A stretch of DNA of 56,603 bases from a virus (taxonomy: Duplodnaviria > Caudoviricetes). The notes under the pieces were generated by a model. It saw only the letters and a program-made list of their open reading frames with translations, was not told where the DNA came from and searched no databases. The DNA lies in IMG/VR virus record IMGVR_UViG_3300013137_000024, positions 1 to 56,603 of that record, one strand, 5' to 3'. Made by a program: the position numbers and the translations under genes. Of this stretch, positions 1-16,400 are shown one piece after another. Numbering within the stretch: position 1 is the stretch's first letter; every line of letters starts with the position of its first letter.

Positions 1-4
1 CGTT

Positions 5-3000
5 TTGGGCTTGGTCAAGGGCCAACAAGCACCCCGTAAGGCCACGTTCTATACGTTCCAAGGGCCTATCGTCACGGGCGATGGTGGTGGTGTTACTGCT
101 ACCGATCCGTCTCAGGTGACTGTTCGGGTGAATGGAACCCAGGTGATTCCAACGGCTGTAGATGGTGCCAATCGGGCAGTAACCCTCTCAGTGGCTCCGG
201 CCCCGGGATCGGTTGTGTCCATCACCTACTACTTCAACACCTGGCAGGATACGTTTGATTACTTGCCCAACGTTGGAGTTTCTCAGGTGACCTCCTGCGG
301 GGATAGCCCCGGGTCTTCATCTTACATTCAAGGGGCTGATTTCGTTCTCCAGAATGACACCATTGTCTGGGGTACCGCAGTCACAACCGAAAGTGGGGTT
401 CATACCAGCGGGTCTACCTATTTCGGGACCGAGCAGATTTCCACCCTCCTGGTAGACAACCGGACTTTCATGTCTGAATGCTCTGCTGTAGTGGTGACGG
501 GGGCAGCGAGTCTGACCACATTCCAGCTGCCGTTCGATCCGACTCTTGGGAATGGCCGTGATACTCCGTTGGGGCAGTCTTTGTTCCAGACGGTGTCCAA
601 CTCCCGTATTGACCTCCCTGTCAACCGGCCGGACGTGGTGTGGGCATACTGGGGATGGGATGCTCAGGATGCTCTCGAACGTGGTCGGGTGGGGGTGCTC
701 AAAGTCGAAGGCAATGTCGTCACCTTGGCAGAAGCCATCCCAGTGGGTGCTCGGGTTTTCGCGACCTTCTACTACAGCACCCTGACCGATGAAGATTTCT
801 CCCTGACCTGTGTGGTTCCGGGGGCCTCGGGTGTTGGGACCTACACGGTCACGAAGTCTGATGGTTCCGCCGTGTTTGGTCCGACTTTCTCTACAACGTC
901 CAAGGGTCCATCCCTCAATGGAGTCACCATCGAGTTCCCTTCGGGATCCGAATTGACTCCGGATGTACATTTCGAGGGTCTTAGCGGGGCCTATTTCACC
1001 GGTCCTGTTCAGGAAGTGGCGTCCGTGGAATTCGCCACTCGTCAAGCCACTCCCGCTCGGTTCACCTCACCTGGAGCTGGCCCTTACGAGTTCATCAATG
1101 GGAGTTCGGATCATCTCAGAACGGTTGTCCACACGCAGGATATCGGGGCCGGAGGTTTGGACCTTGACAATCCCTCCGATTTCAACGGTGGGTTCTTTGC
1201 ATCCGTTGTGGGAAACGAGGTTGAGTATCCCAATGGTCAGGATTTTGATGTTCCGTTGGGATCGCATGAAGAGATCCTGTTGACCGTCGACAACGTAGAC
1301 ATCCTGGCCAAGACCGATGAAAATCTGACGGATGCCGATATCGGTGTATTTGCCACGGCAATCAATGCGGCTGCTTCTGGCCAGCAAGGCGTAGCAGTTG
1401 CCGGTGGCGCCGCGACAATTACCCTCGCAGCTGCGTCTCGTTCCAACCTCGATGATCGATACATCGGGTGGAGGGTGGTTGTAGGGAACGGGGCTGCCGT
1501 GGCCACGGCGGGGCAGATGCGGACGGTAACGGATTATGTCGGGGGCGCCGGAATTGCCACTGTGGATTCCGACTGGGATGTGGGTCCTATTCAGGCGCCA
1601 GATCCATATTACATTTACGATCCGAATGCTCGGGCAGCCATTGCTGGTACAACCGTATTCTCGGGTCCTGTGACGTTGGCCGCAGGCAAACATGAACATC
1701 TTCAACTCATCTATCACGGGGACAATTCCGGACTCGCGACTTTGGAATTCGTGGTATCCGATCCCGCCGCGGTTGCAACGGCAACAATCACGGTGGATCC
1801 TGCTGTAACTGGTGGTGATAGTGTCACCATTGGCGGATCGGGACCGGGTGCTGGTCCAGCTGTTGTGTTCGATTATGCTGCTGTACCCGACCCGGCGAAC
1901 CGGAAATTCAGCGATGCAGCAACGTTGGCTGCATCCATTACTGATCCGGCGGTGCAACCTTTGCTGGTGGCAGCCTTTGGATACCCGAAATCTCTTCCGG
2001 CAGAAACCATCTCTGCGGTTGCGGTCGGAACCGTTGTGACCATCACGTACAGCGTGGTGGGTTGGCACGGGGTTCAGACGACTTTGGCCAAGGGTGGCGA
2101 TCCCGCGCACATCACTCTGTCGGGGGCGTCTCTTGGGTTCACGGCAGCCGAGTACCAATTCGCGTCTGTAACCACTTTGGCGACGGCTGTTCAGGCCGCG
2201 GTGGACATTGCTGTGGTGGACGCCTGCGATACGGCTGGTGGCAATCCCGATTTCCTTGGTTTGGCCATCGAATGCGATGCCAATGCCAACAACCAACTCG
2301 AATTCCGGATCCAGCTGCCGGGGGTGGACTCCGCCGGATACATCCAGTTTCTGGATTCGACGGGCACTCCGGATGACGATTTCGCCATCCTCGCCGGGTT
2401 GGACACCGCTGCATCTGAAGCTCTCGGTCAGGCGGCCTTGCTTCAAGGGCCGATCGCCAAGACTTACGAATGCCCGGCTAGTGGATCGGCCAAGCCCTAT
2501 GACCGGTTGATTCTCCGCAACCGAATTCTGCCCGGTGGTGGCCCGAATAGCAGCATGAATGCTGCCGCGGTCGTAGCCCAGACGGGTTTGGCGGTTCAGG
2601 CCGCATCCTCTCTGTCTGGACTCGATATCGGGATGTTCGGTTTGGCAGAACGTACTGCCACGGTAAAAGCAGCGACCCTGACAAGTCGGGTGTCCTTGGC
2701 CGGCGGATTTGATGCCAATGCCGAAGTGCAACTCACGTTCTATGATGGTACGGGAACCAAGGCAGCCAACAACACCTTCTCGTTTGTGTTGGATGGCTAC
2801 GCTGTCACGGTTACTTTCGATTCGATCAGCACGGGAACGACTCGGGCGTTGGGTCCGACCTCGGTGGGTGGCCACACCACAGTTCTCGATCAGATCCAGG
2901 ATGCCCTGGCCGCTGTTCCCGGGACTCCTTTTGGGGACCGTGCCACTGTGTATGCGGCAGAATTGATCCGGCAAGAAGGCTGCGGGATCCGCATTATCGG

Positions 3001-4834
3001 AGCAGCCTATGACACGACGGCTGAAGTGACCATCGGTTCGGGCAATGCCAACGCCACATTGGGATTCTCGGCCGGACAGACTTCAGGCCGTTCCCCGGTT
3101 GAAGCCAAGGTTTTGGCCTCGGCCCTCAATGCCAACCGGGATTCCACGAGTTTGCTTTTTTACATGACCGATTTCACCTCGGAGGATCCCGGGGTCAAGT
3201 TTGCCAAGTATGGATTCGCGACGACTGAACTCGATGCCACCGGACTGGAATACCTGTACATCCAGGACGCTCCGACCCTGACCACGGGATTGGGCGCGGC
3301 CTCGACGTTGGAATTCCTGGATGCTTCGGCGGCCAATGCCCTCAATTACGGGACTCAATTGGGCATTCTCGATGGGGATGGGGCTACGGGCGAACCTGCT
3401 CTCAACGGATTTTTCGTCACGTCGAACAATCCGGCGGGATCCGGTTCTGTCAACACCTCCGTTCTCAATGATGGATTGGGCCAGGACGGCATCGTGGGAC
3501 AGACCTATCGGGATGATGTCACCGGATTGACTTTTACTGTCCTTCCCCGTGGATTCCATGACAACCCCACGGGTCCCTGGATCGCGTACCCGACAGGGGG
3601 TAATGCGACGTTCCGGTTTGACGTGAACAGCACGCTCAGGACCAATGTCAACATCCCGGTCAATGTCATCAATGGTGTCGAACTGAAGGTTTCGAACACC
3701 GTTGGGGTCACTGTCGGGGATACCGCAGTGGTTTCAACTCATGAGCGTGGTGGAAACGAACCGGGTATCGGGGATCTGTATTATGTCACCTACTACTACG
3801 TGAAAGAGGATTTCACCACTGCTTTCTACCGGAATTTCAATGTCATCGAGCAGAACTTTGGGCCGATCAACCCGGACAATCCTTTGTCGTTGGCTGCCTA
3901 TCTGGCTATCACCAACGGAGCAGTGGTGGTCGGATTGAAACAGGTTCCTCGGGAGGCAGATTCCATCTATGGGTCCCTGACGAGTTACCGGGATGCCATC
4001 ACTGAGTTGGAAGGGGTTCTTCCCGGTCAGGTGCAGCCGGACATGATCACCCCTCTTCGTGGGGACTCGACGCAATTGTTCCAGGTTCTCAAGAAGTCCA
4101 ATGATATCCAATCGAGTCCTCGGTATCGGGCGGAACGGACCTCGATCATCGGTCTCGCGGCCGGAACTCTTCCGGTAGCCGCTGGGAATCTGGCCCAGAC
4201 TTTGATGCACAACCGTATGCGGTTGGTCTATCCGGATCAGGCGGTGGTGTCACTCCAGGACAACGCGGGGAATACGTCAGATTACTTGATTGATGGCCCT
4301 TACATCGCGGCGGCCCTCACCGGCTCCGTGTGTTCCCCGAACGTCGATGTTGCAACTCCGTGGACTGGCCGGCGTCTTGTTGGATTCACTCAACTGGGTC
4401 GTAGACTCGATGCGGTTGAACAGAACCAACTGGCAATCAAAGGTGTCACCATCCTCGAAGACCAACCCCCCTTCCTGCGAGTTCGTCACGGTTTGACCAC
4501 GGATATCACCGGGGCAACCACAGATGGCAACATTTTGTTGGGTAAACTGCCGACCATCCGTCTGATTGCAGACGAGGTGCAACGCCAGACTCGAAACGTT
4601 CTTGAGAAGTTCATTGGGGTCAAGTTCATCCCCAGTATCCTTTCCCAGATCGAAGGACAACTGGCGGCTCTGCTGCGGTCTCTCGTGGCGGCGCAGATCA
4701 TCACAGCGTACACGGGCGTCAAAGCCGCTATGTCTGCCACAGATCCCACAACTGCGGAGATCTCGGCCTGGTATTCTCCGGTTTTCCCTCTTGATTACAT
4801 CGAGGTCAAGTTCAGGGTCCGTAGCAGCCTTTAG
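5..4834 (+). CDS. Contractile tail sheath protein, very large, 5'-truncated (frame open to the window edge)
   Basis: The C-terminal ~350 aa reads like a sheath C-terminal domain (LSLAAYLAITNGA, R.R.VYPD, YIAAALTG, GVTILED..LRVRHGLTTD, TIRLIADEV, FIGVKF, WYSPVFPLDYIEVKFRV). The rest is Gly/Thr/Ala-rich beta-type insertions. There is no in-frame stop before position 5. Confidence 0.85.
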   Translation: MGLVKGQQAPRKATFYTFQGPIVTGDGGGVTATDPSQVTVRVNGTQVIPTAVDGANRAVTLSVAPAPGSVVSITYYFNTWQDTFDYLPNVGVSQVTSCGDSPGSSSYIQGADFVLQNDTIVWGTAVTTESGVHTSGSTYFGTEQISTLLVDNRTFMSECSAVVVTGAASLTTFQLPFDPTLGNGRDTPLGQSLFQTVSNSRIDLPVNRPDVVWAYWGWDAQDALERGRVGVLKVEGNVVTLAEAIPVGARVFATFYYSTLTDEDFSLTCVVPGASGVGTYTVTKSDGSAVFGPTFSTTSKGPSLNGVTIEFPSGSELTPDVHFEGLSGAYFTGPVQEVASVEFATRQATPARFTSPGAGPYEFINGSSDHLRTVVHTQDIGAGGLDLDNPSDFNGGFFASVVGNEVEYPNGQDFDVPLGSHEEILLTVDNVDILAKTDENLTDADIGVFATAINAAASGQQGVAVAGGAATITLAAASRSNLDDRYIGWRVVVGNGAAVATAGQMRTVTDYVGGAGIATVDSDWDVGPIQAPDPYYIYDPNARAAIAGTTVFSGPVTLAAGKHEHLQLIYHGDNSGLATLEFVVSDPAAVATATITVDPAVTGGDSVTIGGSGPGAGPAVVFDYAAVPDPANRKFSDAATLAASITDPAVQPLLVAAFGYPKSLPAETISAVAVGTVVTITYSVVGWHGVQTTLAKGGDPAHITLSGASLGFTAAEYQFASVTTLATAVQAAVDIAVVDACDTAGGNPDFLGLAIECDANANNQLEFRIQLPGVDSAGYIQFLDSTGTPDDDFAILAGLDTAASEALGQAALLQGPIAKTYECPASGSAKPYDRLILRNRILPGGGPNSSMNAAAVVAQTGLAVQAASSLSGLDIGMFGLAERTATVKAATLTSRVSLAGGFDANAEVQLTFYDGTGTKAANNTFSFVLDGYAVTVTFDSISTGTTRALGPTSVGGHTTVLDQIQDALAAVPGTPFGDRATVYAAELIRQEGCGIRIIGAAYDTTAEVTIGSGNANATLGFSAGQTSGRSPVEAKVLASALNANRDSTSLLFYMTDFTSEDPGVKFAKYGFATTELDATGLEYLYIQDAPTLTTGLGAASTLEFLDASAANALNYGTQLGILDGDGATGEPALNGFFVTSNNPAGSGSVNTSVLNDGLGQDGIVGQTYRDDVTGLTFTVLPRGFHDNPTGPWIAYPTGGNATFRFDVNSTLRTNVNIPVNVINGVELKVSNTVGVTVGDTAVVSTHERGGNEPGIGDLYYVTYYYVKEDFTTAFYRNFNVIEQNFGPINPDNPLSLAAYLAITNGAVVVGLKQVPREADSIYGSLTSYRDAITELEGVLPGQVQPDMITPLRGDSTQLFQVLKKSNDIQSSPRYRAERTSIIGLAAGTLPVAAGNLAQTLMHNRMRLVYPDQAVVSLQDNAGNTSDYLIDGPYIAAALTGSVCSPNVDVATPWTGRRLVGFTQLGRRLDAVEQNQLAIKGVTILEDQPPFLRVRHGLTTDITGATTDGNILLGKLPTIRLIADEVQRQTRNVLEKFIGVKFIPSILSQIEGQLAALLRSLVAAQIITAYTGVKAAMSATDPTTAEISAWYSPVFPLDYIEVKFRVRSSL

Positions 4835-4947
4835 CCAATAGATCCTGGTACTTACGCATCACCAAGAAATCCCAGACATTTTGAGATTGGGGTTCGGTAT
4901 TTCCATTATACACTTTTCCTTTGTAGGACCTGCCTGTGGAGGCACAA

Positions 4948-5427
4948 ATGTCTTTTGATTTGAAGAACGCCATGTTTGCATCAGTCGGCAAGTACAATCG
5001 GGATCAAGGAAAGCACGCCCACATGGTGTCACACCTAGAAAAACTTTGGGGTCCGACGATTCGTACTGCGACAACTATTACGGTGGGACCTCAGACGAAT
5101 TTCAAGAATCTTCTGGAACAGGGATTCGTAATTCCCCTGCAGGAATTCCTCACAGATCAGTTGGGACCTTTGGTATGGCAAATTCGGCCGTTGGAAGATT
5201 ATTTTGGGGTGAGTGGCGAAGCCCTTTCTGGCTCGGGTCTTTACTTTGAAGTTTATATCACAGGCAAAGAGTTCAGAACCATTACCCTACGTTTTCTGGG
5301 TGAAAACCAATCACGTAAGGAAATCCGGATGCCTTTTCGTTGGGAACAACCTTTGTCCAGGATTTTTCTCCTGATTGGAGACAAGCTGAAAATCTTATGG
5401 TTTGAGGAGGATACCACTTCTGGGTGA
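4948..5427 (+). CDS. Hypothetical protein (paralog of 5543..5998)
   Basis: GGAGG at 4938-4942 precedes ATG 4948. Shares EKLWGP.I..A, (Y/L)EV...K.F..I and QPL.R.F.LI..K with the next gene. Confidence 0.7.
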   Translation: MSFDLKNAMFASVGKYNRDQGKHAHMVSHLEKLWGPTIRTATTITVGPQTNFKNLLEQGFVIPLQEFLTDQLGPLVWQIRPLEDYFGVSGEALSGSGLYFEVYITGKEFRTITLRFLGENQSRKEIRMPFRWEQPLSRIFLLIGDKLKILWFEEDTTSG

Positions 5428-5542
5428 AAACCAATCACGTAAGGAAATCCGGATGCCTTTTCGTTGGGAACAACCTTTGTCCAGGATTTGTCTCCTGATT
5501 GGAGACAAGCTAAAATATCTTATGGTTTGAGAAGGATACCAC
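5294..5542. repeat. Near-perfect tandem duplication (124 bp at 5294-5417, 125 bp at 5418-5542)
   Basis: Both copies read ttctgggtgaaaaccaatcacgtaagg...ggataccac and differ by about three substitutions and one 1-bp indel. Confidence 0.95.
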
Positions 5543-5998
5543 ATGGCACAGCAGATCGAAAAACTTTGGGGTCCAGTGATCAAGGTGGCGAACAACGTAA
5601 TGATCCCGATGACGAGTTCGACCACGTTTGGGGACATCTTGGAAACGACGTTTTCTACGCCACTCCGGGATGCTTTGACGAAAGCTTTGGCAAATTTCGG
5701 ATGGGTGTTCGAAGAGGAACTGGCCAATGATAATCACGGGGTGTACGGGTGGCGGGACTCCGCGGAGGGTGAAGAACGGTATGAACTTGAGGTCCTTCTC
5801 TCCAAGGACTTCAAGGTCATCAATATCAAGTACACTGAACCCACCAAGTCTCCCGTATCCAGCTCCATTCCATTCCTTGCCACTATTCGTCAGCCCCTGC
5901 TCCGTCTATTCTCTTTGATCGTGGGCAAGATTCCGAGGGGTGCTTTCGAGCCTGTTCCTATACCTGAAGAAGATGATGAGGAAATTCTCGATGTCTGA
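5543..5998 (+). CDS. Hypothetical protein (paralog of 4948..5427) with acidic C-terminus
   Basis: GAAGGA precedes ATG 5543. Full-length similarity to the upstream ORF; ends EEDDEEILDV. Confidence 0.7.
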   Translation: MAQQIEKLWGPVIKVANNVMIPMTSSTTFGDILETTFSTPLRDALTKALANFGWVFEEELANDNHGVYGWRDSAEGEERYELEVLLSKDFKVINIKYTEPTKSPVSSSIPFLATIRQPLLRLFSLIVGKIPRGAFEPVPIPEEDDEEILDV

Positions 5999-6374
5999 TG
6001 CTGCACACCGGGTTGCGAACCATTGGGTAAAATGTGCGGGAAGAAACCTTCGGGAACAACTCAAAAGTATTTCAGATCGGGCGGCCCAAGCGGCGTTACA
6101 GACTCAACGTGTTGGCACGATGGCTCTTGAGGAACGTCTGAAACGAGCCCTGGAAAATCGTGGTGGATTCATTGTCCGAAAATTGGAATTCAGGTGGATC
6201 AGGGGGATCGTGTACATCGATATTATGATTGTGGTTCCCGATGCGTTAGGGAAATCGGGGGCCGAGGATTTGCTGACGGAGATTTTAGGGGGGACTTACC
6301 CCTACCGGGTCATTGGACGATTGGATTCTGCTCATTCTGAGCTTTGGGGATATGCGGGCAAGGCAGTAGAATAA
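5991..6374 (+). CDS. Hypothetical protein
   Basis: ATG 5991 overlaps the upstream stop (ATGTCTGA) and has GAGG upstream. The ORF ends just before a strong hairpin. Confidence 0.6.
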   Translation: MSDAAHRVANHWVKCAGRNLREQLKSISDRAAQAALQTQRVGTMALEERLKRALENRGGFIVRKLEFRWIRGIVYIDIMIVVPDALGKSGAEDLLTEILGGTYPYRVIGRLDSAHSELWGYAGKAVE

Positions 6375-6384
6375 CAGCGGGTGA

Positions 6385-6421
6385 CCGGTTCCGGAGGGAT
6401 GGGGGATCCCTCCGGAACCGG
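6385..6421. terminator. Perfect 16-bp hairpin between convergent genes, probable bidirectional terminator
   Basis: ccggttccggagggat (6385-6400), loop ggggg, atccctccggaaccgg (6406-6421). Lies between the + stop at 6374 and the - stop at 6434. No clear U-tract. Confidence 0.75.
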
Positions 6422-6433
6422 CCCGTTCTTGCA

Positions 6434-6916
6434 TCAGTGCGCCGCGGCGGTCGGCTCGGCCTTCCGCTTCGTGACCTTGCCGGTCTTCTTCGCGGCCTCG
6501 AGGCGCTCCACGGCGGCCTTCTTCGCGGCGTTGGACGGCTTCTTGCCCTTCGGGATCAGGTCCGAGATGTCCACGCCGGCTCCCTGCGCATCCGCCCACA
6601 GCAGGCTGGCGGACGGCAGATCCGACTTGCGGCGCGGCACCCGCCCCTCCTTGCCGTTCCGCGGCTGGGTGAGGACCTCCACCGCCACCTCGCCATCTTC
6701 CGACACGATCAGCCGGGCCACGCCCGTCATCCCCTTCTGCCGGGCGAGACCATCCGCGATGGTCTGGTACACCGGCCCCTTCAGGCTGTCGTCCACCGCC
6801 TTCTGAGCGGCAGCGTGCGCTGCCGCCGTCTCCTGGAGACGCTTGATCATCGCGTCATCGATCTCGGGCAGCACGTTCTGAGGCACTGCGAATGCGAACA
6901 CCTTGCGATCCATCAT
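6434..6916 (-). CDS. Small basic Ala/Lys-rich protein, possibly DNA-binding or nucleoid-associated
   Basis: Minus strand reads GGAGGttcagaaATGATG. Strong GC3 bias. C-terminus KGKKPSNAAKKAAVERLEAAKKTGKVTKRK. It has its own promoter and terminator. Confidence 0.75.
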   Translation of the reverse strand: MMDRKVFAFAVPQNVLPEIDDAMIKRLQETAAAHAAAQKAVDDSLKGPVYQTIADGLARQKGMTGVARLIVSEDGEVAVEVLTQPRNGKEGRVPRRKSDLPSASLLWADAQGAGVDISDLIPKGKKPSNAAKKAAVERLEAAKKTGKVTKRKAEPTAAAH

Positions 6917-6980
6917 TTCTGAACCTCCGTTTTTTGGCCTTTTTTCACCCGGGAATCCATATTCCCGGAAACCAGGGACA

Positions 6981-7008
6981 ATGATAGTGTCATTTTTCTG
7001 AATTGCAA
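6981..7008 (-). promoter_or_regulatory. Sigma70-like promoter for the minus-strand gene
   Basis: Minus strand reads TTGCAA (7008-7003), 16 nt, TATCAT (6986-6981). Confidence 0.5.
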
Positions 7009-7077
7009 CTGTTTCTCACGAACTTTTTGCAATCTTGGGAGAAAAGTTTGCGAGTTGACCCATTTGACACTGACCTC

Positions 7078-7106
7078 TTGACAGTGGATGACAGCATGGG
7101 TATAGT
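7078..7106 (+). promoter_or_regulatory. Near-consensus sigma70 promoter for the MerR/VIT-vWA operon
   Basis: TTGACA (7078-7083), 17 nt, TATAGT (7101-7106), followed by GGGAGG and ATG 7129. Confidence 0.8.
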
Positions 7107-7128
7107 TGGAAGGTTGGGAGGTATCCCG

Positions 7129-7503
7129 ATGACGATGAACCAGTTGAGTGAAGCGAGTGGGTTGACACCCCGAACTATCCGATACTACGTGGCCAACGGG
7201 TTGTTACCCACCCCGAAACGAGGGACAAAATCCCCGTATTCTAAAGAACATCTCGATGTCATTCGGAAGATCAAGGAGTGGCAGTTTGGGGGGAAATCGT
7301 TGGACGAGATCCGATTTCTGTTGTGTCAACCCCCGGCAGCAGAACCCCCCAAAGAGATTCCCATGCCCGAGTCGGAGACATGGGAGCAGCACCGGTTGGC
7401 AGACGATGTGGTCGTACAGGTGAAAGCAGGGCTCCCCATGGAGCGGTCATTGCGGGTAGCTCAGGCCATGAAAGGGTTTTTCATGGCCCTGAGGGACGAA
7501 TAG
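7129..7503 (+). CDS. MerR-family helix-turn-helix regulator
   Basis: MTMNQLSEASGLTPRTIRYYVANGLLPTP...YSKEHL..IRKIKEWQ..GKSLDEIR is a typical MerR winged HTH. The RBS precedes 7129, so the ORF-track start at 7003 is too far upstream. Confidence 0.88.
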   Translation: MTMNQLSEASGLTPRTIRYYVANGLLPTPKRGTKSPYSKEHLDVIRKIKEWQFGGKSLDEIRFLLCQPPAAEPPKEIPMPESETWEQHRLADDVVVQVKAGLPMERSLRVAQAMKGFFMALRDE

Positions 7504-7526
7504 AGAACAACCCATCGGAGGTCGTC

Positions 7527-10028
7527 ATGTTGGGATCGTATGGTTTGACCTTTTCTTCGGAGTCTTGCAGCAGAGGGAACACTCTGGTGAATGCTGCCAC
7601 GGGTGAAGATTTGCCCTTGGCCATGCAACATCTGTCTCTGTCTGGCCAGGTTTCCCCTGCCGGGGCACTTCTTCGGGCGACACACCAGTTCAAATGCGCT
7701 GGTGCCCAACCCATGGAGGCTCTTTACATTTTCATGCTTCCCCGGGGAGCCATCCTTCGCAGATTCATTGTCAAAGGGGACGGTTTCGAGGTGGAATCCA
7801 AGCTCAGCCCCCGCGAGGAAGCCCGAAAAGAGTACGAGGCCGGAGTGGGAGACGGGCATCTTTCGACTTTGGCTGAGATGAACTCCGATGGGATGGTCTC
7901 GCTGGCCGTTGGGCAGGTTCAGCCGGATGAGATCATTACTGTCATCGTGGAACTGGTTGCCGGTGTTGACGTGTCGGATGGCCATTACCGTTTCCGATTC
8001 CCGTTTACATTGGCCCCCAGTTACCACGCTCAGGCCAAAATGACATCCACGGGGACTGGTGGCAAAGTAGAATTGCCTTCATCCGTGTTCGGGGATTTGG
8101 TACTTCCCGAATGGACGAAGGACACAGAGAATCTGCATTCGGTGTCTTTCAAGATTCAGGTGGATGCAGGAGGACCTCTCGACTCCGTGGCTTCTCCTTC
8201 GCATCGCATTCTGGTTCGTCCTGGGGCTGATGGATCGGCCGAAGTCGAGTTGTCAGCCCTAGGGGACACGCCGAACCGGGATCTCGTCCTCGATGTGGCC
8301 GCCAAGTCCATCGAACCCGTGGTATTCGCGGATCAGAAGCTGGTCAATCAGACCACAGAAGCGGGTGATCCCAACATATCGGTTTTGGCTCCGAGATGGA
8401 CAGCCGTCATTCCGTCGTTGTCTTTGCCCAAGGCGGCAAATAGACCCCGGGAGGTATGTTTCGTGCTGGACCGGTCGGGGTCGATGGCCGGCGACCCTCT
8501 CGAACGGGCCAAGGTAGCATTGAAAGCATGCCTATCGGCTCTTTCGCCTGCGGATAAGGTGGGGTTCGTTCATTTTGGCAGTGACGCCGTGCGATTCGAC
8601 AAAACTCTCTGCCTGGTGACGGATGCAAATCGCAAACGGGCTCAGAAGTGGATCGATGAGATCTACGCGGACGGCGGGACTGAGCTGGCGCCTGCTCTTG
8701 GGGAGGCAGTCGAGATCCTCGAAACACCCGGCAAAGACGTGTTTGTGTTGACCGACGGTCAGGTGTTTGAAACGGGGCCGATCATCGAACAATGCGCCGC
8801 GGCGGGGACCCGGATTCATGTCCTTGGGATTGGATCGGCATCTCAGGACCGGTTCCTAGCGTCTCTGGCACGTCGTACTGGCGGGGTTGAACGGATGGTC
8901 GGTGTGACCGAAGATGTGGCTGCCGCGGCCCTGGGCATGTTCAATGCCATTCGGCAACCGGTCCAGACGGACGTGAAAGCCACTGTCGAGATGGATGGTG
9001 GGGCCCAGGTGCAGGAACACGATATCGGAACCGTGTGGGAGGGCAAGAGCCTGCTCATCACCGACAACGGCCAATCCGGGGAGTTCCGGCCCATTCGGGT
9101 CAACCTGTCATGGGCTCCTGGGCAGGACATCGTGGTTGATCTCCCGAATCCCCGACCAACTCCGAATGGACTCTCCGCCATGCTGTGGGCTGGCCATAAG
9201 GTCGAGGACCTTGAGTCCCAATTGGACATGTCGATAGCGGGGCCGGCGGCCGAGGCCATCGAAGGTGAACTCCGGACAATTTCGACCGACTACGGACTTG
9301 CGAGCCGGGTGATGTCTCTGTGTGCTGTCGTGAAACGACCGGGGGACAAGCCCGGGGAAATGACCCAGCAAATCGTTCCGGTGGGGATGCCGGAAGGCAT
9401 GGGGAACGTTTTCGCCCCTGCTATCTCTGCGGCATTCGTCGCGACATTGGGTGGCTTCTCTTCTTACAATTCTCCTGGGTTGTGTTGTTCTATGGGCACT
9501 GGCAGTAACCACAGCACCCCGACTTTCACGTCTTATCTGGTCAGCAATCAGGCCTCGGGTTCGTGGGAAAGTCGGTCCTTTGGTCTGGTCGAAAGAGAGG
9601 ACGCCCCCATCAGACCCGGGTCCTATGCAATTCGTGGGCTCTCTTGTCAGGGCGCGCAGCCACGAAAGAAACGTATTGGATTCGCAGCCCCGGTGTTCGA
9701 TCTGTTCACCGAACTGGGCAAACTCGAATCTGATGGTGGTCTCCCTGGAAAGACCCCGGAGGATCGATTCGTTCAAACGATCCTTCTGGTCCTGGTGACC
9801 CTGGCGGCTGAAACCGAGAACACCGGTTCGCCCCTGTTCCGATCTCACCTTAATCGCATGGTCGGATTCATCACCGGCCAGGAGAAAGTTTTCAAGGGAC
9901 ACGAGGGCCTCATCCAGAAGGTGTTGGCCGCAGGAAGTGTTCCTGGTGATTGGCAGAAAGAGTACACCGGATACAAGGGTCATTCGGACAAGGTGTGGAA
10001 AGCCCTGGAATCCGCGTTCGGTGTCTGA
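7527..10028 (+). CDS. VIT (vault/inter-alpha-trypsin) plus von Willebrand factor A domain protein
   Basis: VIT-like N-terminus (HQFKC...MEALYIFMLPRGA...EARKEYEA...VGQVQPDE, FRFPFTLAPSY, PNRDLVL). vWA MIDAS motif VLDRSGSM...GGTEL...VLTDG...RIHVLGIG...FLASLARRTGG, then YGLASRVMSLCAV. GGAGG precedes ATG 7527. Confidence 0.9.
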   Translation: MLGSYGLTFSSESCSRGNTLVNAATGEDLPLAMQHLSLSGQVSPAGALLRATHQFKCAGAQPMEALYIFMLPRGAILRRFIVKGDGFEVESKLSPREEARKEYEAGVGDGHLSTLAEMNSDGMVSLAVGQVQPDEIITVIVELVAGVDVSDGHYRFRFPFTLAPSYHAQAKMTSTGTGGKVELPSSVFGDLVLPEWTKDTENLHSVSFKIQVDAGGPLDSVASPSHRILVRPGADGSAEVELSALGDTPNRDLVLDVAAKSIEPVVFADQKLVNQTTEAGDPNISVLAPRWTAVIPSLSLPKAANRPREVCFVLDRSGSMAGDPLERAKVALKACLSALSPADKVGFVHFGSDAVRFDKTLCLVTDANRKRAQKWIDEIYADGGTELAPALGEAVEILETPGKDVFVLTDGQVFETGPIIEQCAAAGTRIHVLGIGSASQDRFLASLARRTGGVERMVGVTEDVAAAALGMFNAIRQPVQTDVKATVEMDGGAQVQEHDIGTVWEGKSLLITDNGQSGEFRPIRVNLSWAPGQDIVVDLPNPRPTPNGLSAMLWAGHKVEDLESQLDMSIAGPAAEAIEGELRTISTDYGLASRVMSLCAVVKRPGDKPGEMTQQIVPVGMPEGMGNVFAPAISAAFVATLGGFSSYNSPGLCCSMGTGSNHSTPTFTSYLVSNQASGSWESRSFGLVEREDAPIRPGSYAIRGLSCQGAQPRKKRIGFAAPVFDLFTELGKLESDGGLPGKTPEDRFVQTILLVLVTLAAETENTGSPLFRSHLNRMVGFITGQEKVFKGHEGLIQKVLAAGSVPGDWQKEYTGYKGHSDKVWKALESAFGV

Positions 10029-10105
10029 TTTCTCACTCCTTCGATAGATCGCCTATATCTGTTGAGTAGTGTGACCCCGGTTCGTTGTTTTGGGAGGTTC
10101 ACACT

Positions 10106-10951
10106 ATGGCGAACACGGACAATGGCCCTCAGGCTGGTGTGGGCGGCACTTCGTACATGTACGAGTTCGGTACGAGTCCAAACACCCGGACGGCTGTCAA
10201 CCAGAAGGTGCGAATCCTGGCCCCCCATTATGGGAACAACCAGGCGTTGTATCAGGTGGGAGTTCTCTCTTCCTTCGGACCGTCCGAGAACCGAACGATC
10301 GATGAAGTTCGTGGGATCGGGTTCGGGGACAAGATTGCCGAACTCGTCCCTTCGATCACCAACGCGGCGGGTGGGACTTTCGAGAAAGCTCTCGTTTACC
10401 TTTGCAACATTTGGCAAGCAACGGGTTACGCCTCTGGTGTAGACGGGCCCGTACGGTCATTGTCGCATCATCGCTGGCCTTTCGATCTTGAGATGCAATT
10501 GGTTTTCTCCTCCCTGGCCGATTGGGACCTGGTTGGACGAGACAAGGCCAATGTCGGGGCAGATAACGCGCCCGGCACGTTCAACGGTGGGGTGAAGCGG
10601 GTTACTTACGGTCAGGTAACCGATGATATGGCCAAGGGTGATTACCCGGGTGGCGCGCCTGGAAAGCAGCCAGGACATTCTGCAGTCATTACCATTTGTG
10701 AGGCCTGTTGGTTCGAATCCTGGTCTTTGAACCTCACCAAAGATGCGGGCGCAATCATGGAGCAAGGCAACGTCAAAATCACGGCCATGCACGATTACGC
10801 CTCGATGTATGGAGAGTTCCTGGCTACTGGTAACGATCCGACCATCGGGCAATTGGGTTCCATTCGGTTCGCCAAGGGTGATGGGGCTACTTACGCGAGT
10901 TCTGTGGGCGGGCCGGCCGCGCTGGGTGGTTCTCAGCGGTTTACCGCCTAA
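10106..10951 (+). CDS. Tail tube protein (probable)
   Basis: QVGVLSSFGPSENRTIDEVRGIGFGDKIAELVP...WPFDLE...TICEACWFESWS resembles myovirus tube proteins. It sits between sheath and tape measure, with GGGAGG before ATG 10106. Confidence 0.65.
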   Translation: MANTDNGPQAGVGGTSYMYEFGTSPNTRTAVNQKVRILAPHYGNNQALYQVGVLSSFGPSENRTIDEVRGIGFGDKIAELVPSITNAAGGTFEKALVYLCNIWQATGYASGVDGPVRSLSHHRWPFDLEMQLVFSSLADWDLVGRDKANVGADNAPGTFNGGVKRVTYGQVTDDMAKGDYPGGAPGKQPGHSAVITICEACWFESWSLNLTKDAGAIMEQGNVKITAMHDYASMYGEFLATGNDPTIGQLGSIRFAKGDGATYASSVGGPAALGGSQRFTA

Positions 10952-10974
10952 TCGGTCGGTAGAGTGATACATCC

Positions 10975-11157
10975 GGGAACGGCTGGTTGCCGGGAAAATG
11001 AAAGCACAAGAAGAACGTAGAGATTCTTTGCAGGTTCTGGTCCTTCGCATCTTTTGAGAGATGGGGATGGTTAGACCCAGATGAAACCGGATAGCAAGAA
11101 CGAACCTTTCTTGTGCTGTTGAAAGCAACCTGAGCCGTTCCCTCTGAGGAGGGAACG
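10975..11157 (+). ncRNA. Structured intergenic or leader RNA of unknown family
   Basis: Nested perfect complementarity: 10975-10984/11133-11142, 10985-10990/11125-11130, 11003-11012/11108-11117 and 11032-11037/11102-11107. An alternative hairpin 11136-11144/11149-11157 covers the RBS. Confidence 0.6.
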
Positions 11158-12294
11158 ATGGACATTACGTTTGATCTTCTTGAGCGCATCTTGGCTCCTA
11201 TCGAGGATCTTGGCCGGGATGAAGTGACCATCCCTGTCGGGGACACCACTGTAACTCTCAAAGTCATTCTTCCCGAACAGGAGAACGAATCCCAACGGGC
11301 GGCGTCGGCGTCCGGAGTAGCCTCGGAGTCAGAAGAGAAAGAGGACACGTCCGAGGTCGCTGGGGTCACTAAGATGGTGGACTACATCCAGCGATTGGAA
11401 GTGGAAGTTCTTTCTCGGGCGATTGTTGCCGTTGGGGACACCGATTTTCGGGCTGTCAAGTATGTCGAGACCGACGAGACTTTGGGGGATGGTCAGAAGG
11501 TCAGGATCCCGCTGCATGCGGCATTGAAGAAGTTCGTTTTGCGTTGGGCCGGGCCAGTGCGAACCCGGATCTATCAGAACTACCATGAACTCCTTACACA
11601 AGTGGAACGCAAAGCAGAAGAGAGGATCAAGTATGACCCCTCGGATGTCACGACCGAGCTTGAGAGGGCCAAAGCCCGGGTTACAAGATTGGAAAAAGAA
11701 CTCGAGCGGCGAAAGAATCCGTCGCTTTCCAGCGTGGTGGGGTCTCAAATCCATGCAATTGCACAGGGGGAACTGACCCGAGAGTCTGAACCTGAAGAAG
11801 AATCCAAACCCCCCACTCCCGAGCCCGTAACACCACCGGCAGGCCGGCCGGTAATGGCCCCGCCTCCGGTTCAACGGGTGACACCACAGACCCCGAAACC
11901 GGTTGTTGCCCAACCCCATGATGATCTGGGGGATGTCGAAGATTCGTTTGCATCTCCGGATGACATGGGCGCCGCAGTTGAGGCCGAGAACCGGAGACTT
12001 TTGGTGGATCGTCGCCGGATCGAAGCGGGTCTCCCACCGATGGCCTCTTCGGTTTCATCGGGGATCGATCATCTCCGGGAGGTCTATGGACATCGGAGAC
12101 CCCCACATGCCGGAGCTGCCGAGGCCGCGGCCGAGGTGTTCACGGAGCCCGATCTTCCCACTGAACCTCCGGTTACGGGACAAGTCGAGGTCCTGACACG
12201 ACGGCAGGAGAGACCACCAACGCATGTCCAAGTGGATGGACCCGCTAAGGGATCCCGGAATCCTCGTTTCAACCCTCCGAAGAGGGTGCCGTGA
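11158..12294 (+). CDS. Tail assembly chaperone-like protein with Pro-rich low-complexity C-terminus
   Basis: Lies between tube and tape measure. N-terminus VTLKVILPEQE...EVLSRAIVAVG is chaperone-like. GAGGAGG RBS. Confidence 0.5.
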   Translation: MDITFDLLERILAPIEDLGRDEVTIPVGDTTVTLKVILPEQENESQRAASASGVASESEEKEDTSEVAGVTKMVDYIQRLEVEVLSRAIVAVGDTDFRAVKYVETDETLGDGQKVRIPLHAALKKFVLRWAGPVRTRIYQNYHELLTQVERKAEERIKYDPSDVTTELERAKARVTRLEKELERRKNPSLSSVVGSQIHAIAQGELTRESEPEEESKPPTPEPVTPPAGRPVMAPPPVQRVTPQTPKPVVAQPHDDLGDVEDSFASPDDMGAAVEAENRRLLVDRRRIEAGLPPMASSVSSGIDHLREVYGHRRPPHAGAAEAAAEVFTEPDLPTEPPVTGQVEVLTRRQERPPTHVQVDGPAKGSRNPRFNPPKRVP

Positions 12295-12303
12295 CGGAGG
12301 GAT

Positions 12304-13479
12304 ATGGTTCTCCCAAACACGACACCCGAACAAAGATCCCCGTTCTATGCGGACGTGGAATCTCTCATATCAGTCGGTTTTCTTAGCCATCCTGTAGAAG
12401 TCCAAGGTATCCCCATGAATCTCAGATCTCTCAGTCCGGGGGATCTATTCCTTCTTCGGACTCGAGTCGGGAATGCCGGAACGGATATTCGATGGCAGGC
12501 TTGGACTGTGGCTTCTTCCATCTGGATGCTGGATGGCTATGTGATTCTTGGGGATACCCACGTAACGGCAGAATTGTATCATCGGATCCTTCGAGTGCCG
12601 AAATCCGTTCTCGAAACCATGTTCTATGTGGCTTTGGGACTCCACAAGAGACAATCCCAGGCAATGGAAGCCGTGGAGTCCTATTGTTTCGAGAGTACAT
12701 CTCGGTTTCGATGGACAGCATTCAAGAATGGGCCTGTTAGTTCTCATGCTGGTATCCCCGGGGCCGAGAAGCTCGGGCTGAACTCCGTTCAACAGATGTG
12801 GGCGGTTTACAACGAAATCGAGGACATTCGCAACAGGGAGGAGTCGCTTTGGGAAGGGCTGAAATTGGTGGCTTCGGCATCGGCCCCCAAGGGAGTGAAG
12901 CAACTCGATGCTGCTGACAAGCGGCGGCGGGCTGCAGATCGGGATCGTCGGCAGTCGTTGATGGATAAGTTCTATTACACCCAGATTGGATACCTTCTTG
13001 AAGGGAAAGCCCCGAAGGATGGGCCTCAGTTCATTCAGCAGTCCAAGACAGTCGAGGATCTCGAAAAGGAGATGTATGACTGGGTTGTTGGGAACGAAGA
13101 CTGGCATGACAAGATCATCAACGCATACAAGAGGGAAGTCGTAGCCAAGTTCGAGAAGGAAAAGGCAGAAGCCAGGGCCAGAGCTGAAGCGTTGGCCAAG
13201 GCTGAAAAAGAGGAGTCCGGGGGGTCTCCGCCATTGGTTGGTTATGCGCCGGATGTCCTGATGGCGATGCTTCGGGAGCGTGATCAGGGCCGTGGTGGGA
13301 CTCGGATGATTTACGATGATCCTCAACGCGAATCCGTCTATCGGAAATACGTCATAGGACAGCCTGATTCCGGGCGTCTTCGTGCCGTTGGAGGCAGATT
13401 GGTCGTAACCGATGGGCCGAGTCCTACGGGTGAACCTGAACCCACGGACGAACCGGTGATGCCTGAGATGGAGTACTAA
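12304..13479 (+). CDS. Hypothetical protein immediately upstream of the tape measure (second chaperone-position gene)
   Basis: GGAGGG RBS, 391 aa, charged helical central region; call rests on gene order. Confidence 0.5.
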   Translation: MVLPNTTPEQRSPFYADVESLISVGFLSHPVEVQGIPMNLRSLSPGDLFLLRTRVGNAGTDIRWQAWTVASSIWMLDGYVILGDTHVTAELYHRILRVPKSVLETMFYVALGLHKRQSQAMEAVESYCFESTSRFRWTAFKNGPVSSHAGIPGAEKLGLNSVQQMWAVYNEIEDIRNREESLWEGLKLVASASAPKGVKQLDAADKRRRAADRDRRQSLMDKFYYTQIGYLLEGKAPKDGPQFIQQSKTVEDLEKEMYDWVVGNEDWHDKIINAYKREVVAKFEKEKAEARARAEALAKAEKEESGGSPPLVGYAPDVLMAMLRERDQGRGGTRMIYDDPQRESVYRKYVIGQPDSGRLRAVGGRLVVTDGPSPTGEPEPTDEPVMPEMEY

Positions 13480-13482
13480 TCG

Positions 13483-16400
13483 ATGGCTAAGGGTCGAAGA
13501 TCAGCAGGTAGGGGGGCGGGTGGTGGGGAAGGTCTGCTCGAATTAGCTGCCTCTTTCAAGCTGGATTTCAAGGAAGCCCAAGAGGACATTGAGGATTTCC
13601 AAAACAAGTTGAAGAAAGGTTTCTCCGACGCCGTAGCTGCCAGCATGGCGTTGGGCCCAAAACGCAACACAAAAATTCATGACGACATCAAAGAATTGGG
13701 ACAGGCGCTCCAAAAAGCTTATGCCGAGTTTCAATCATCCGAAACCAAGGCTCAAGAGACCTTCATTTCGGATACGGAAAGGGCTCAACGACAGGCAGAT
13801 GTCCGCATAGCCAAGGGGAGATATGGGGATCTCAAGAAACGCTGGGACGACGAGATGCGGATCGTTGATCGGCGCAAGAAAGCCGAAGAAGAAGCCGCCG
13901 AACGTCTCAACGGACAGCTCTCCCAAGCGACTCAGACCTTCGGGGAAGGGATGCACGGCGTGTTCCAGGACATCATGTCCAAGGATGTCGGGAACCTGGC
14001 CGGACTTTTCAGCAAATTGGCCAAAGCCAGTCAAACAGCGTCTCACAAAGCACAAGAAGCGGCCCAAGGACGTGAAGGCAAATCCGGCGATCTCATGAAA
14101 GGGTTGGGATCCTTCCTCGCCAAGATCGGACCTACCCTTGCCGCCATTGCCGCGGTCGCTGCTGGATTCGCGGCTGTGATCAAGATCCTGATTGATGCGG
14201 ATGCCCAGGCCAAGGATTTCAACCGGACGCTCATGGAAAGTGGAGTGGCCGGGGGAGGTTTGAGTTCCACCCTGGGGGGCATGGAGGAAACCCTACGTAA
14301 AACTCGAGATCTGTTCATGAATCACCCACTGTACAATTTCAAATGGGGGGTCACGCCCAAGGATTTAGCCAAGATTCAAGGGGAATTCGAAGAAGTTGGT
14401 ATGGCGTTCGGGGAGTACACCCAGAAAGTCGAGAAAGCCAAGACCGACCAAGATGCACTTGGCAAAGCTATTGAGTCGACCCTTACGTATTCCAAGTTGT
14501 TCAACATGTCCACGTCAGAGATTGCCAAGCAGTACAACACTTACATGGAAGACCTTGGAATGACCGTGGGGATCATCTCCGAACGTTTCAGTGAGCTACT
14601 GTCGGTGGCCCGGGAGTCGGGGTTCGGGGTCAAGAGGTTCTTCTCGATGATATCTCAGGCGACATCTGGCATGACCCTTTACAACGTACGGATTGCGGAA
14701 GCGGTCAGTTTGCTCGATGCTTTCGCCAAGGCCGTAGGGAAGGAAAAGGCCGGGGAGTTGTTGAAAACCGTGAACGAACAATTCCGAGATATGGATCCCT
14801 CAGAACGCATCAAGCGCGTCAAGTTGATGGGTGAAAAATATGCTAAAAAGACTCTTCAGACGGATACTCAGAAAATGGCTGCTAGTGTGCTCGAAAGCAT
14901 CAAAGGGGTCATGGCCACTCCGAAAGGAGCTGGTCTGAAACCGATTTTGGAAGAAATGTTCCGGGGGGACAAATTCGGGGGTTACGCCAAAGTTATGTCC
15001 AGTCCCGAGAATTTCAACAAGGCCGTGGGCCAAATGGATGAGGGGGAATTGGCCAAGTTCAATATGGCTATCGGGGCATACAATGAAGATCTCGTTCATG
15101 TAGCGCGTAGTTTCGAATTGTACAGCAAAGCCGTCGCAGGGGGAAATTTGCAAGGTGCTTTGCCCTATGCGGGTTTCCAGGCCAATACCAAAATGGCATT
15201 GGGAGCCTTACAGACATTGTTCAAAGGCAGGAGTATTGGTCAGATCGATTTGGCTCGTGATAAAGGTGAAAGTGAGAAAGCGGCCGAAATGGTTTTGAAT
15301 ATAGGTCCTGGACGTTTTAGGGAATTATTCAATTTGGATCGTCAATACATAGATGCACATCTGACGCTCATGGATGAAGCCACTAAGATATCGAAAGCTG
15401 CCCCCGAAGACCAAGCCAGGATGATCAAGGAGTTCAACAATACATTTGCCAAATCCATGGGTGTAGCATTGGACCTGCAAGATGGAAAAGTGATTCGTCG
15501 CAAGGCCGAGTTTGACAATGAAGGCAAACCCATAGGTGAGATTGTTGAAGACACCAAGGATGCTTTGGTCGATCTCATCAAAGTCAAACCTGCCGAGCTA
15601 AGCAAAGATACACAGATGGCTATACAAATAGCCGAGAATACTCGGGATTTCACGCAGATTCTCGAGACCGGAGTGCAAGCGGTTCTCAATCATATTTACA
15701 ATGTCGTTACAGACATCAGGGACATTCTTTTCATTGGTCGCCGAAAATTGGAAGGTGCAGAAAAAACCGCCCAACAGCAAGCCGCGGATGAAATTGCTAC
15801 TGTCATATCGGATTCACAGAAAGAGGTTATGAAGGCTCAACATGAACAACGGGATCTCGCCAAGCAGCTCAAGAAAGCAGAGACCCCCGAAGAACAGGCT
15901 GCTATCGAAACCAAGATCAGGGATGCCAAACGGCGGGAGGATGAAGCTCGAGGTCGTGAAAGGGTGGGTCGAGAGCAGAGAAGACGGGTTGTGGGGGTGG
16001 CTGAACTTCAGGATGTGGATGAGAAGGTTCGGCCCAAACTGAAAACCAAAGAAGAGTGGTTGGAATTCTCGGCTAGGGAACAAGTCGCCAAACTGGAAGA
16101 AGAAGATCCTTTGCGGGAAGGCGCTGAAATAGCCGGGGAGATTGCAGCCAGGAATGAACGGGAACGACTTCGAGCTCATCCCGAAGAGGTCTATTCTGAA
16201 ACCATCCTAGAAGGCCCATCGTCGTCGCCTAAAACTATCATTGAAAATAAGGTCGAAGAGGCCCGTCAGAAAGCGATGGCCGATTACATTAATCAAGGGC
16301 AGAAGAAATTGATTGCACCTACGGCCACGGCTAATGCCGTGGCTAACTGGGATGAATATGATCGCCGTAAGCAGGCGAAAATCGCGGCCATTCTGAAGGG

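Follow-up and report, generated by a model that had tools for sequence, protein, structure and literature searches.

A MerR-like/VIT-vWA gene pair with a conserved putative operator, found in bacteria and in one lineage of very large phages

Introduction

The MerR-family regulators TnrA and GlnR are regulated by glutamine synthetase, that is by a protein and not by a small ligand. The MerR-like BluR is also under protein control, being directly antagonised by BluF (available text of PMC3509220). In Myxococcus xanthus, the antirepressor CarS takes the recognition helix of the MerR-type proteins CarA and CarH into an acidic pocket and mimics operator DNA in this way (available text of PMC2926617). 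Here we describe a pair of adjacent genes for which control of this kind is proposed, encoding a short MerR-like protein (R) and a VIT-vWA protein (V). They are carried by the IMG/VR virus record IMGVR_UViG_3300013137_000024 (Duplodnaviria; Caudoviricetes), a DNA stretch of 56.6 kb analysed over its full 56,603 nt and called the window below. The window is a fragment of a very large phage, because its completeness is estimated at 11% (CheckV); related contigs reach 435 kb and 618 kb.

The partners of these MerR-family regulators differ from V. Those of TnrA/GlnR and of BluR, an enzyme and a BLUF-EAL protein respectively, are unrelated to it. On the regulator side, GlnR and TnrA resemble R in having no long coiled coil, and the N-terminal domain of R superposes on the structures 7tea, 4r22 and 4r4e. 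As with CarS, the predicted complex puts the recognition helix and wing of R on an acidic face, here that of the beta-rich VIT domain. However, CarS is a small, light-induced, SH3-like protein encoded at another locus and its targets CarA/CarH carry a B12-binding domain, whereas V is an 833-aa partner encoded in the same operon and R ends in a beta-beta-alpha tail. The likeness proposed here is one of mode, not of homology.

VIT-vWA proteins occur from bacteria to humans, and the VIT domain, to our knowledge, still lacks an assigned molecular role, including in ITIH, PARP4 and VWA5A. V has the architecture and fold of ITIH heavy chains, PARP4 and VWA5A, as judged by profile matches to ITIH4 (E 5e-39), ITIH1 (E 1e-28) and PARP4 (E 8e-25) and by its top fold match in the PDB, ITIH1 (6fpy, Foldseek E 9e-30, about 15% identity), and its metal ion-dependent adhesion site (MIDAS) is intact. 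Unlike these proteins, it has a C-terminal domain with a DGG..H signature and a MerR partner. V looks cytoplasmic, no N-terminal hydrophobic stretch being visible by eye. A bacterial VIT-vWA family, TIGR03788 (marine proteobacterial sortase target protein), aligns with V residues 49–625; membership of V was rejected, with 225.5 bits against a curated cut-off of 551.65. The vWA proteins paired with MoxR and the aerotolerance proteins BatA/BatB share a MIDAS-bearing vWA domain with V, with fold matches to 3ibs and 4jdu (BatB-type), but they have no VIT domain. In agreement with the initial annotation, which was made from the window sequence and reported no MoxR AAA+ partner, a search of the window for AAA_3 (MoxR-type) gave no match, while control genomes did.

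One bacterial VIT-vWA protein has a described phenotype. According to the available text of bioRxiv 10.64898/2026.05.23.727404, LT3126 of Limnobacter thiooxidans (708 aa) is predicted to be cytoplasmic and has conserved MIDAS residues; its expression is low at the basal level and rises strongly upon exposure to gamma rays, heat or oxidative stress, and its overexpression raises survival about 200-fold. The terms 'MerR', 'operon' and 'transcriptional regulator' do not occur in that available text. We did not transfer this phenotype to the family of V, since the length of LT3126 fits a distant, unpaired VIT-vWA family of about 720 aa (see below). VIT and vWA proteins are also mentioned repeatedly in the available text of a study of AlphaFold models with 6-crossing knots (bioRxiv 10.1101/2023.06.16.545156). 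A pair of a MerR-like and a VIT-vWA protein in prokaryotes was not found described in the literature searched, which left most subscription journals outside. The 'undescribed system' suspected in the initial annotation appears, more precisely, to be an undescribed regulator-partner cassette.

Results

The R-V pair is conserved in phages and bacteria

Related loci were collected through V alone, by an alignment-based scan, and then searched with the R of the window. A scan of viral contigs with the single V sequence found nothing, while the alignment-based scan succeeded and gave 27 viral loci. The bacterial sample consists of the best 80 of 186 stretches in species-representative genomes. Among the candidates scored, 932 relatives of V were obtained at E ≤ 0.001, with identities of up to 62% over the full length.

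An R homologue was present directly upstream of V and on the same strand in 27/27 viral and 77/80 bacterial loci, the two genes often overlapping or being closely spaced. Lack of conservation elsewhere had been set beforehand as the observation that would speak against the pair being a system; this neighbourhood survey instead found the pair in 104 of the 107 related loci. Two of the partner-less loci, L082 and L102, have just 44 and 327 bp of upstream DNA. The last one, L093, keeps the C-terminal two thirds of the R gene behind an open reading frame (ORF) resembling that of an insertion sequence. In this locus, from an Acidobacteriota metagenome-assembled genome (MAG; positions 5001–5960), the R gene has lost the 5′ part coding for the helix-turn-helix (HTH), and the V frame is open. 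The insertion sequence-like ORF, on the minus strand, has a weak match to rve (integrase core; E 0.008), under the cut-off. In another locus, L079 (Acidobacteria MAG, 2758–5535), R and V are joined in one open frame of 926 codons, which could be a natural fusion or an assembly error in this single MAG case.

Bacterial carriers are mostly Acidobacteriota (Bryobacterales, Solibacteraceae), with further ones in Verrucomicrobiota, Hydrogenedentota, Planctomycetota, Armatimonadota, Myxococcota and others; the cassette is common in soil and freshwater bacteria. Partnership with R is a property of this family of V and not of VIT-vWA proteins in general, as judged by a control sample of 301 genomes of one bacterial order, of which 23 had a VIT-vWA match. 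Both members of the paired family found there carried the R partner and the operator motif described below (2/2), while neither partner nor motif was found in any of 10 fetched loci of the distant family of about 720 aa (26–30% identical).

In bacteria, the pair is not accompanied by a conserved third gene. The genes next to it have no preferred strand (plus:minus counts of 38:36 upstream and 31:38 downstream), and the 143 bacterial flanking genes fall into 166 Pfam families, each found in at most 5 members. None of the 25 commonest of these families is a defence, phage or AAA family. A 384-aa ORF upstream of the pair in 16/80 bacterial loci was discarded as a probable shadow ORF: it has no Pfam match and overlaps a better minus-strand call in L075.

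A conserved dyad covers the −35 box of the cassette promoter

The promoter of the cassette (Table 1) shows 11 of 12 matches to the sigma-70 consensus and ends 22 nt upstream of the R start. Copies of TTGACAsTG are present in this region at 7064 and 7078, along with further TGAC[AC] repeats; the whole window contains 6 matches to the motif against 0.97 expected, including these two. The same motif, TTGACA[CG]TG, was found in 83 of 96 distinct 200-nt regions upstream of the pair (75/77 bacterial, 8/19 viral), for a background of 10 matches in 2.5 Mb of the same loci. The bacterial consensus reads gACAgTACTTGACAcTGtCa, followed after a 17-nt spacer by tAt.cT, the −10 element. Written out, the bacterial consensus operator is GACAGTACTTGACACTGTC; it forms a 19-bp dyad, GACAsT-N7-AsTGTC, the midpoint of which falls on the −35 box. 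Viral versions either keep the right half (CTTGACAGTGGC) or carry tandem TTGACAGT repeats.

The operator appears to be dedicated to the cassette. Its 14-nt core occurred once with zero mismatch in four of five bacterial genomes (6.7–9.1 Mb), always at the cassette; in the fifth, the cassette site carries one mismatch to the core. The remaining one-mismatch matches were as frequent as those of a reversed-pattern control.

Classical MerR promoters have their dyad operator inside an over-long spacer of 19–20 bp between the −35 and −10 elements. The cassette promoter is different, with a normal 17-nt spacer and a dyad centred on the −35 hexamer; therefore, repression by occlusion fits better than a MerR-style remodelling of the promoter. 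As far as sequence can tell, R would be a dedicated autoregulator occluding the −35 box. The initial annotation had called the cassette autoregulated, and the presence of a conserved operator over its own −35 box argues in favour of this. That R and V constitute a conserved, locally regulated two-gene unit appears to us highly likely.

R and V combine known folds with family-specific C-terminal modules

R scores 56.4 bits against the Pfam MerR_1 cut-off of 21.6, and its AlphaFold2 model has a predicted local distance difference test score (pLDDT) of 92. The model shows a winged HTH (residues 1–66), a Pro-rich linker (67–84), a beta-hairpin (85–99) and a helix (104–123). The N-terminal domain superposes on CadR, PbrR, CueR and MerR with 1.2–1.7 Å over 65–67 residues, and structural matches stop at about residue 67–75. 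The remaining module of about 40 residues, of beta-beta-alpha type, matched no PDB structure, and the long antiparallel coiled-coil dimerisation helix typical of the MerR family is absent from the model. Homologues of R share in this module the pattern W..Y..a.DV.V.VR..PWR, defining a partner family of its own; in PHROGs, R matches two unnamed families. R was first described as a short MerR HTH with a small C-terminal module and without Cys-rich metal site, and this description is confirmed: the motif then quoted, ETWEQHRLADDVVVQV, is present in R, and the translation contains a single Cys. No Cys cluster and no recognisable ligand-binding domain that could serve as effector site was found in R, and the metal-sensor equivalogs of NCBIfam score it far below their cut-offs (for instance MerR, 32.9 against 150.85).

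The V gene starts after a gap of 23 nt. The features of V initially noted (length of 833 aa, VIT-vWA architecture, intact MIDAS, low-complexity linker and helical C-terminus) were all recovered by Pfam, alignment and AlphaFold2, the model (pLDDT 81, predicted template modelling score 0.81) having an ITIH-like body. The MIDAS residues D315, S317, S319, T385 and D410 are invariant in 29/29 aligned relatives, and in the larger alignments they are conserved in 22/22 or 21/22 viral and 79/79 bacterial rows. The linker, which is disordered in the model, differs in length between relatives and corresponds to gappy alignment columns. The C-terminal DGG..H domain is confined to the MerR-paired family. 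Atlas feature matches to this domain were all below 0.9 and named SQHop-cyclase and TED-like families. An exhaustive search with it gave 80 proteins, mostly short and possibly gene fragments, among which a few ankyrin-repeat proteins match query positions 43–116 only. These ankyrin-like and SQHop-cyclase/TED-like repeats are weak leads and we name no fold. Pfam detected no enzymatic domain in V, and neither R nor V showed a nuclease, protease, NTPase or pore domain. The sole PHROGs match to V is one marginal family.

A complex is predicted between the VIT domain and the DNA-reading face of R

The initial annotation had suggested predicting the complex of R and V. One such prediction was run, with our own alignments of V and R and with a Mg ion included. 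The interaction prediction score from aligned errors (ipSAE) was 0.74 (0.76, 0.74 and 0.73 in individual runs), against 0.00 for the best of three controls. At least 55% of contacts recur between runs, and the partner has a pLDDT of 78 or more. The score passes a mark reached by 58 of 80 solved complexes and by 2 of 110 mismatched pairs, a calibration that is rough here in view of our own alignments and the riding Mg. The prediction thus supports a direct link between R and V.

On the R side, the modelled interface comprises residues 3–4, the helix 12–22, the wing 29–36 and residues 57–59, that is the DNA-reading face. On the V side, it involves positions 64, 66, 100, 104, 108, 127 and 171–192 of the VIT domain, together with 609–616. 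Two acidic positions of this surface distinguish the paired from the unpaired family: position 190 is D in 97/101 and position 182 is E in 95/101 sequences of the paired family, while the unpaired one has S and A, respectively, in 10/10. We also looked at covariation (mutual information with average product correction) over 96 pairs, corresponding to an effective number of 87 sequences (Neff). The interface block was weakly enriched, 31 of 2000 random blocks reaching as high a value. The geometry of the model is therefore not confirmed by covariation, and R may have a further contact with V through its C-terminal module. From the model, R and V probably bind each other; that V masks the HTH of R in doing so is a more tentative proposal.

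The pair is patchy among related phages and was probably captured once

Gene order in each of the 27 viral loci is that of the window: a giant ORF is followed by a variable stretch, R, V, and conserved genes of 288, 378, 391, 1089, 227 and 472 aa. These loci were chosen through V, and a second search was made with the conserved 288-aa neighbour. It gave a sample of the best 80 of 508 viral stretches, 68 of which have at least 3.5 kb upstream. Among these 68 related phage loci with room upstream, the pair was present in 24 and missing from 44; in many of the latter, the giant gene nearly abuts the 288-aa gene.

A tree of V was built with FastTree and Shimodaira-Hasegawa (SH)-like supports, after four duplicates and four partial sequences had been dropped. 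The phage copies form one clade (20/20 rows, SH-like support 95), next to a sequence from a Myxococcia MAG. This nearest bacterial sequence (L100, on a 30-kb contig that may be bacterial or a mis-binned phage) has an atypically long R-like partner, and the operator motif is absent upstream of it. When presence is mapped on a tree of the 288-aa protein, one major subclade lacks the pair altogether (24 absent, 0 present), and the distribution is patchy in the other (16 present, 12 absent, 3 fragments), the starred branches forcing at least three changes between presence and absence.

A loss can be seen directly by comparison of two loci, L131 and L133, the flanks of which share 84–87% nucleotide identity. 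L131 lacks about 3.6 kb containing R, V and most of a phospholipase D (PLD)-like gene, the 3′ end of which remains. This gap is a deletion scar left by a single event. The PLD-like nuclease gene (PLDc_2, E 3.5e-30) lies just after V in L133 (6073–6516), and the scar in L131 is near 6469–6520. Short V frames are also found in L123/L124 (5237–5989, about 250 aa) and in L125/L126 (the same as L024/L027; 3691–5262, about 524 aa). These short frames resemble copies in decay, although frameshifts from sequencing are possible.

The simplest history is that the pair was taken from bacteria once and then lost repeatedly. We consider it very likely that the pair is a moron-like accessory located in a variable hotspot of the phage genome, because of this patchy history of capture and loss and of its host-type promoter.

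Gene surroundings in the window

All large ORFs of the window are on the plus strand. For positions 4800–14000, the sequencing runs listed as containing this DNA comprise two DNA runs (shares of 0.95 and 0.09) and no RNA run. The initial annotation had placed the pair inside a phage tail module. It does lie in a co-directional block that includes baseplate genes, but the nearest recognisable ones, encoding a gp25-like sheath initiator and a Baseplate_J protein, are about 32 kb downstream, and the immediate neighbours of the pair matched no Pfam, PHROG or NCBIfam family. The five giant ORFs are nearly without family matches, apart from a weak one to DUF4815 in the first; an 807-aa ORF has a weak match to DUF2345 (spike-like).

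The two genes flanking the hotspot are conserved in 24/27 viral loci, whereas its small ORFs match none of the 27. The first two of these are paralogues, with 31% identity over 136 aa (E 2e-15) and an EKLWGP motif in both. No Pfam or PHROG match was obtained for them or for the third small ORF, nor any homologue among the 27 related viral loci. The ORF divergent from R, which has a Lys/Ala-rich tail, is the sole sizeable minus-strand ORF of the window not overlapping a longer plus-strand ORF. A weak promoter-like site precedes it, and it has neither a family match nor a homologue in the related loci. Downstream, the 288-aa protein has a mean column identity of 62% with many invariant Gly, Trp and His, and was found in 508 stretches of IMG/VR contigs of up to 618 kb. 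It matched nothing in Pfam, PHROG, NCBIfam or PDB sequences (profile against PDB, best E 0.76), and is a good marker for this group of huge phages.

Table 1. Features of the R-V cassette and of its surroundings in the window
Feature	Position	Strand	Details
Promoter/operator region	7056..7106	+	−35 TTGACA 7078-7083, 17-nt spacer, −10 TATAGT 7101-7106
13-nt inverted repeat	7015..7054		85% complementary, 14 nt between arms; just upstream of promoter
MerR-like ORF (R)	7129-7503	+	124 aa; Pfam MerR_1 E 3.3e-15, residues 1-64
Ribosome-binding site-like GGAGG	7517-7521	+	5 nt before ATG of V
VIT-vWA ORF (V)	7527-10028	+	833 aa, ITIH-like architecture
VIT domain of V	7626..7949	+	aa 34-141; Pfam VIT E 3.8e-12, 46.8 bits
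vWA domain of V	8451..8894	+	aa 309-456; VWA_3 E 3.5e-15, residues 309-454, 56.8 bits
Disordered low-complexity linker of V	9423..9689	+	aa 633-721; pLDDT below 50
C-terminal helical domain of V	9690..10025	+	aa 722-833; invariant D736-G737-G738 and H774
Variable accessory hotspot	4835..10084		between conserved giant ORF (end 4834) and conserved 288-aa gene (start 10085)
Hotspot contents			two paralogous small ORFs, third small ORF, one minus-strand ORF, R-V pair
Small ORF 1	4936-5427		paralogue of small ORF 2
Small ORF 2	5543-5998		paralogue of small ORF 1
Small ORF 3	5940-6374		after the two paralogues
Minus-strand ORF	6434-6916	−	160 aa, divergent from R gene
Weak promoter-like site	7008-6981	−	for the minus-strand ORF
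288-aa gene	10085-10951	+	downstream flank of hotspot
Giant ORF	2-4834	+	1610 aa; upstream flank of hotspot
Giant ORF	13483-16752	+	1089 aa
Giant ORF	18850-23877	+	1675 aa
DUF2345-like ORF	23881-26304		807 aa
Giant ORF	26923-38118	+	3731 aa
gp25-like sheath initiator	42140-43270	+	
Baseplate_J protein	43271-46810	+	
Giant ORF	48391-53205	+	1604 aa

Discussion

A proposed protein-gated regulatory circuit

The reading that we favour, with moderate confidence, is that R represses the operon at the −35 operator and that V binds R by its VIT domain in a ligand-gated manner. The cassette would be a self-contained, autoregulated two-gene module of cellular origin, captured once by one lineage of very large phages and retained there as a non-essential extra within a variable hotspot of the structural gene block. 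R would repress both genes by binding the 19-bp palindrome at the −35 box of the strong sigma-70-type promoter that the cassette itself carries, as the conserved and genome-unique operator suggests. In the model, cytoplasmic V grips the recognition helix and wing of R with an acidic VIT surface (E64, E104, E182, D190) and with residues 609–616. Binding of R to DNA and to V would then be mutually exclusive, and V would act like an antirepressor. The MIDAS and the C-terminal helical domain are likely input or output surfaces, where a ligand or a protein could decide on the hold of V on R. The cassette would thereby constitute a protein-gated switch, or a feedback loop, around a metal-dependent protein-binding scaffold. 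In the phage, it would be expressed from its host-type promoter independently of the structural genes, and its most likely target is host physiology, or a copy of the circuit carried by the host itself, rather than virion assembly.

A bolder version, which we regard as rather unlikely, considers the VIT domain here as a trap for an HTH. R would be held by its DNA-reading surface and the hold gated by a target at the MIDAS or C-terminal domain, giving a one-step protein sensor wired to transcription; phage copies sharing operator and interface could plug into, silence or decoy the circuit of the host.

Several observations weigh against the ligand-gated repressor circuit. The exact operator motif is present in just 8 of the 19 distinct viral upstream regions, with variants visible, and the conserved motif may be read by a sigma factor or another protein rather than by R. 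Binding and geometry are both predictions, and basic HTH surfaces may dock on any acidic surface. Among the acidic residues of the interface, two are not specific to pairing, since the unpaired family also conserves E64 and, for the most part, E104. The strongest covarying pairs link V 548–599 with R 62 and 105–112, outside the modelled interface. A search for fused MerR-VIT-vWA forms among longer proteins found none, with 2 unrelated matches, which is weak evidence. In addition, if R and V are made from one transcript, constant masking of R by V would make autorepression futile, so that binding needs to be conditional. Finally, V has no enzymatic domain that would account for an output of the cassette.

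Alternative explanations

The initial annotation had proposed a sensor-effector cassette for host manipulation, superinfection exclusion or counter-defence. In such a scheme, the MIDAS would sense a foreign protein, release or capture of R would trigger a protective or abortive response, and the phage copy would exclude rivals or serve as a decoy. Patchy gain and loss in phages and a hotspot with a PLD-like nuclease gene in one relative are compatible with it, as is the host-type promoter of the cassette; the operator common to phage and bacterial copies makes cross-talk with a host copy conceivable. The HTH of R also resembles mad1, a small HTH protein of a PADLOC system (E 2.4e-8 over 46 residues), but this match is limited to the generic HTH. 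V matched no model of PADLOC-DB 2.0.0 at E up to 0.1, a release dated 2023 that does not cover newer defence systems. With no enriched family, and no defence or phage family among the 25 commonest, around the bacterial pairs, and with no effector domain in either protein, the proposal is not supported and we judge it unlikely. Much the same small likelihood is given to an ordinary regulator, R being a conventional repressor or activator that answers a small molecule or stress and V being merely its regulated product, perhaps a stress-protective scaffold, without contact between the two. Here, the conserved, genome-unique operator indeed shows dedicated local regulation, and LT3126 is stress-induced and protective (available text of bioRxiv 10.64898/2026.05.23.727404). 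But R has no recognisable ligand-binding domain, just its module of about 40 residues, and LT3126 fits better, by its length, the unpaired family, in which 0/10 loci have a MerR partner. Contact between R and V is moreover suggested by the complex prediction, which passes with controls at 0.00, by the family-specific acidic residues at the predicted interface and by the in-frame fusion at one locus (L079).

Two further explanations seem highly improbable. If the pair behaved as a toxin-antitoxin system, free V would be harmful, and R would neutralise it and autorepress the operon as in type II systems. The gene order, a small DNA-binding autoregulator followed by a larger partner with overlap or close spacing, the predicted direct complex and the self-contained nature of the unit would suit this scheme. 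However, no toxic domain was detected in the 833-aa scaffold V, and the predicted contact is made by the HTH of R and not by a separate neutralising tail. The open V frame next to a truncated R gene in L093 also argues against a lethal free V. The other explanation takes V for a virion or assembly protein, such as a tail or baseplate accessory, the expression of which is timed by R. vWA domains are common adhesins and vWA proteins do occur in phages; the cassette belongs to a long run of co-directional genes that includes giant ORFs and baseplate genes, at the same position in 24/27 viral loci. Against a routine virion assembly factor, an outcome that the initial annotation had named as refuting its proposal, stand its own sigma-70-type promoter, its absence from 44/68 related loci and its deletion in L131 between flanks 84–87% identical to those of L133. 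In addition, full-length relatives with the same partner and operator reside in bacterial chromosomes without phage genes, the closest cellular relatives have ordinary chromosomal neighbourhoods, and a tblastn search of 50,697 deposited phage genomes returned nothing.

Significance

The mode of control proposed here is of a known kind, a MerR-type regulator under control of a protein partner, while the partner, the operator and the capture by a phage appear new. For the VIT domain, the cassette offers a simple and testable function, binding of a defined partner, the 124-aa HTH protein encoded next door, with both the DNA site (the 19-bp operator) and the interface residues defined. It also provides a clear case in which a very large phage lineage took a complete regulatory circuit, including promoter and operator, from bacteria. 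Phages keep or lose the pair as a whole, as would be expected of genes for interaction with the host. If V does switch R as its protein partner, the cassette would represent a new kind of protein-gated MerR regulator and open a way into a module that at least 186 species-representative bacterial genomes contain.

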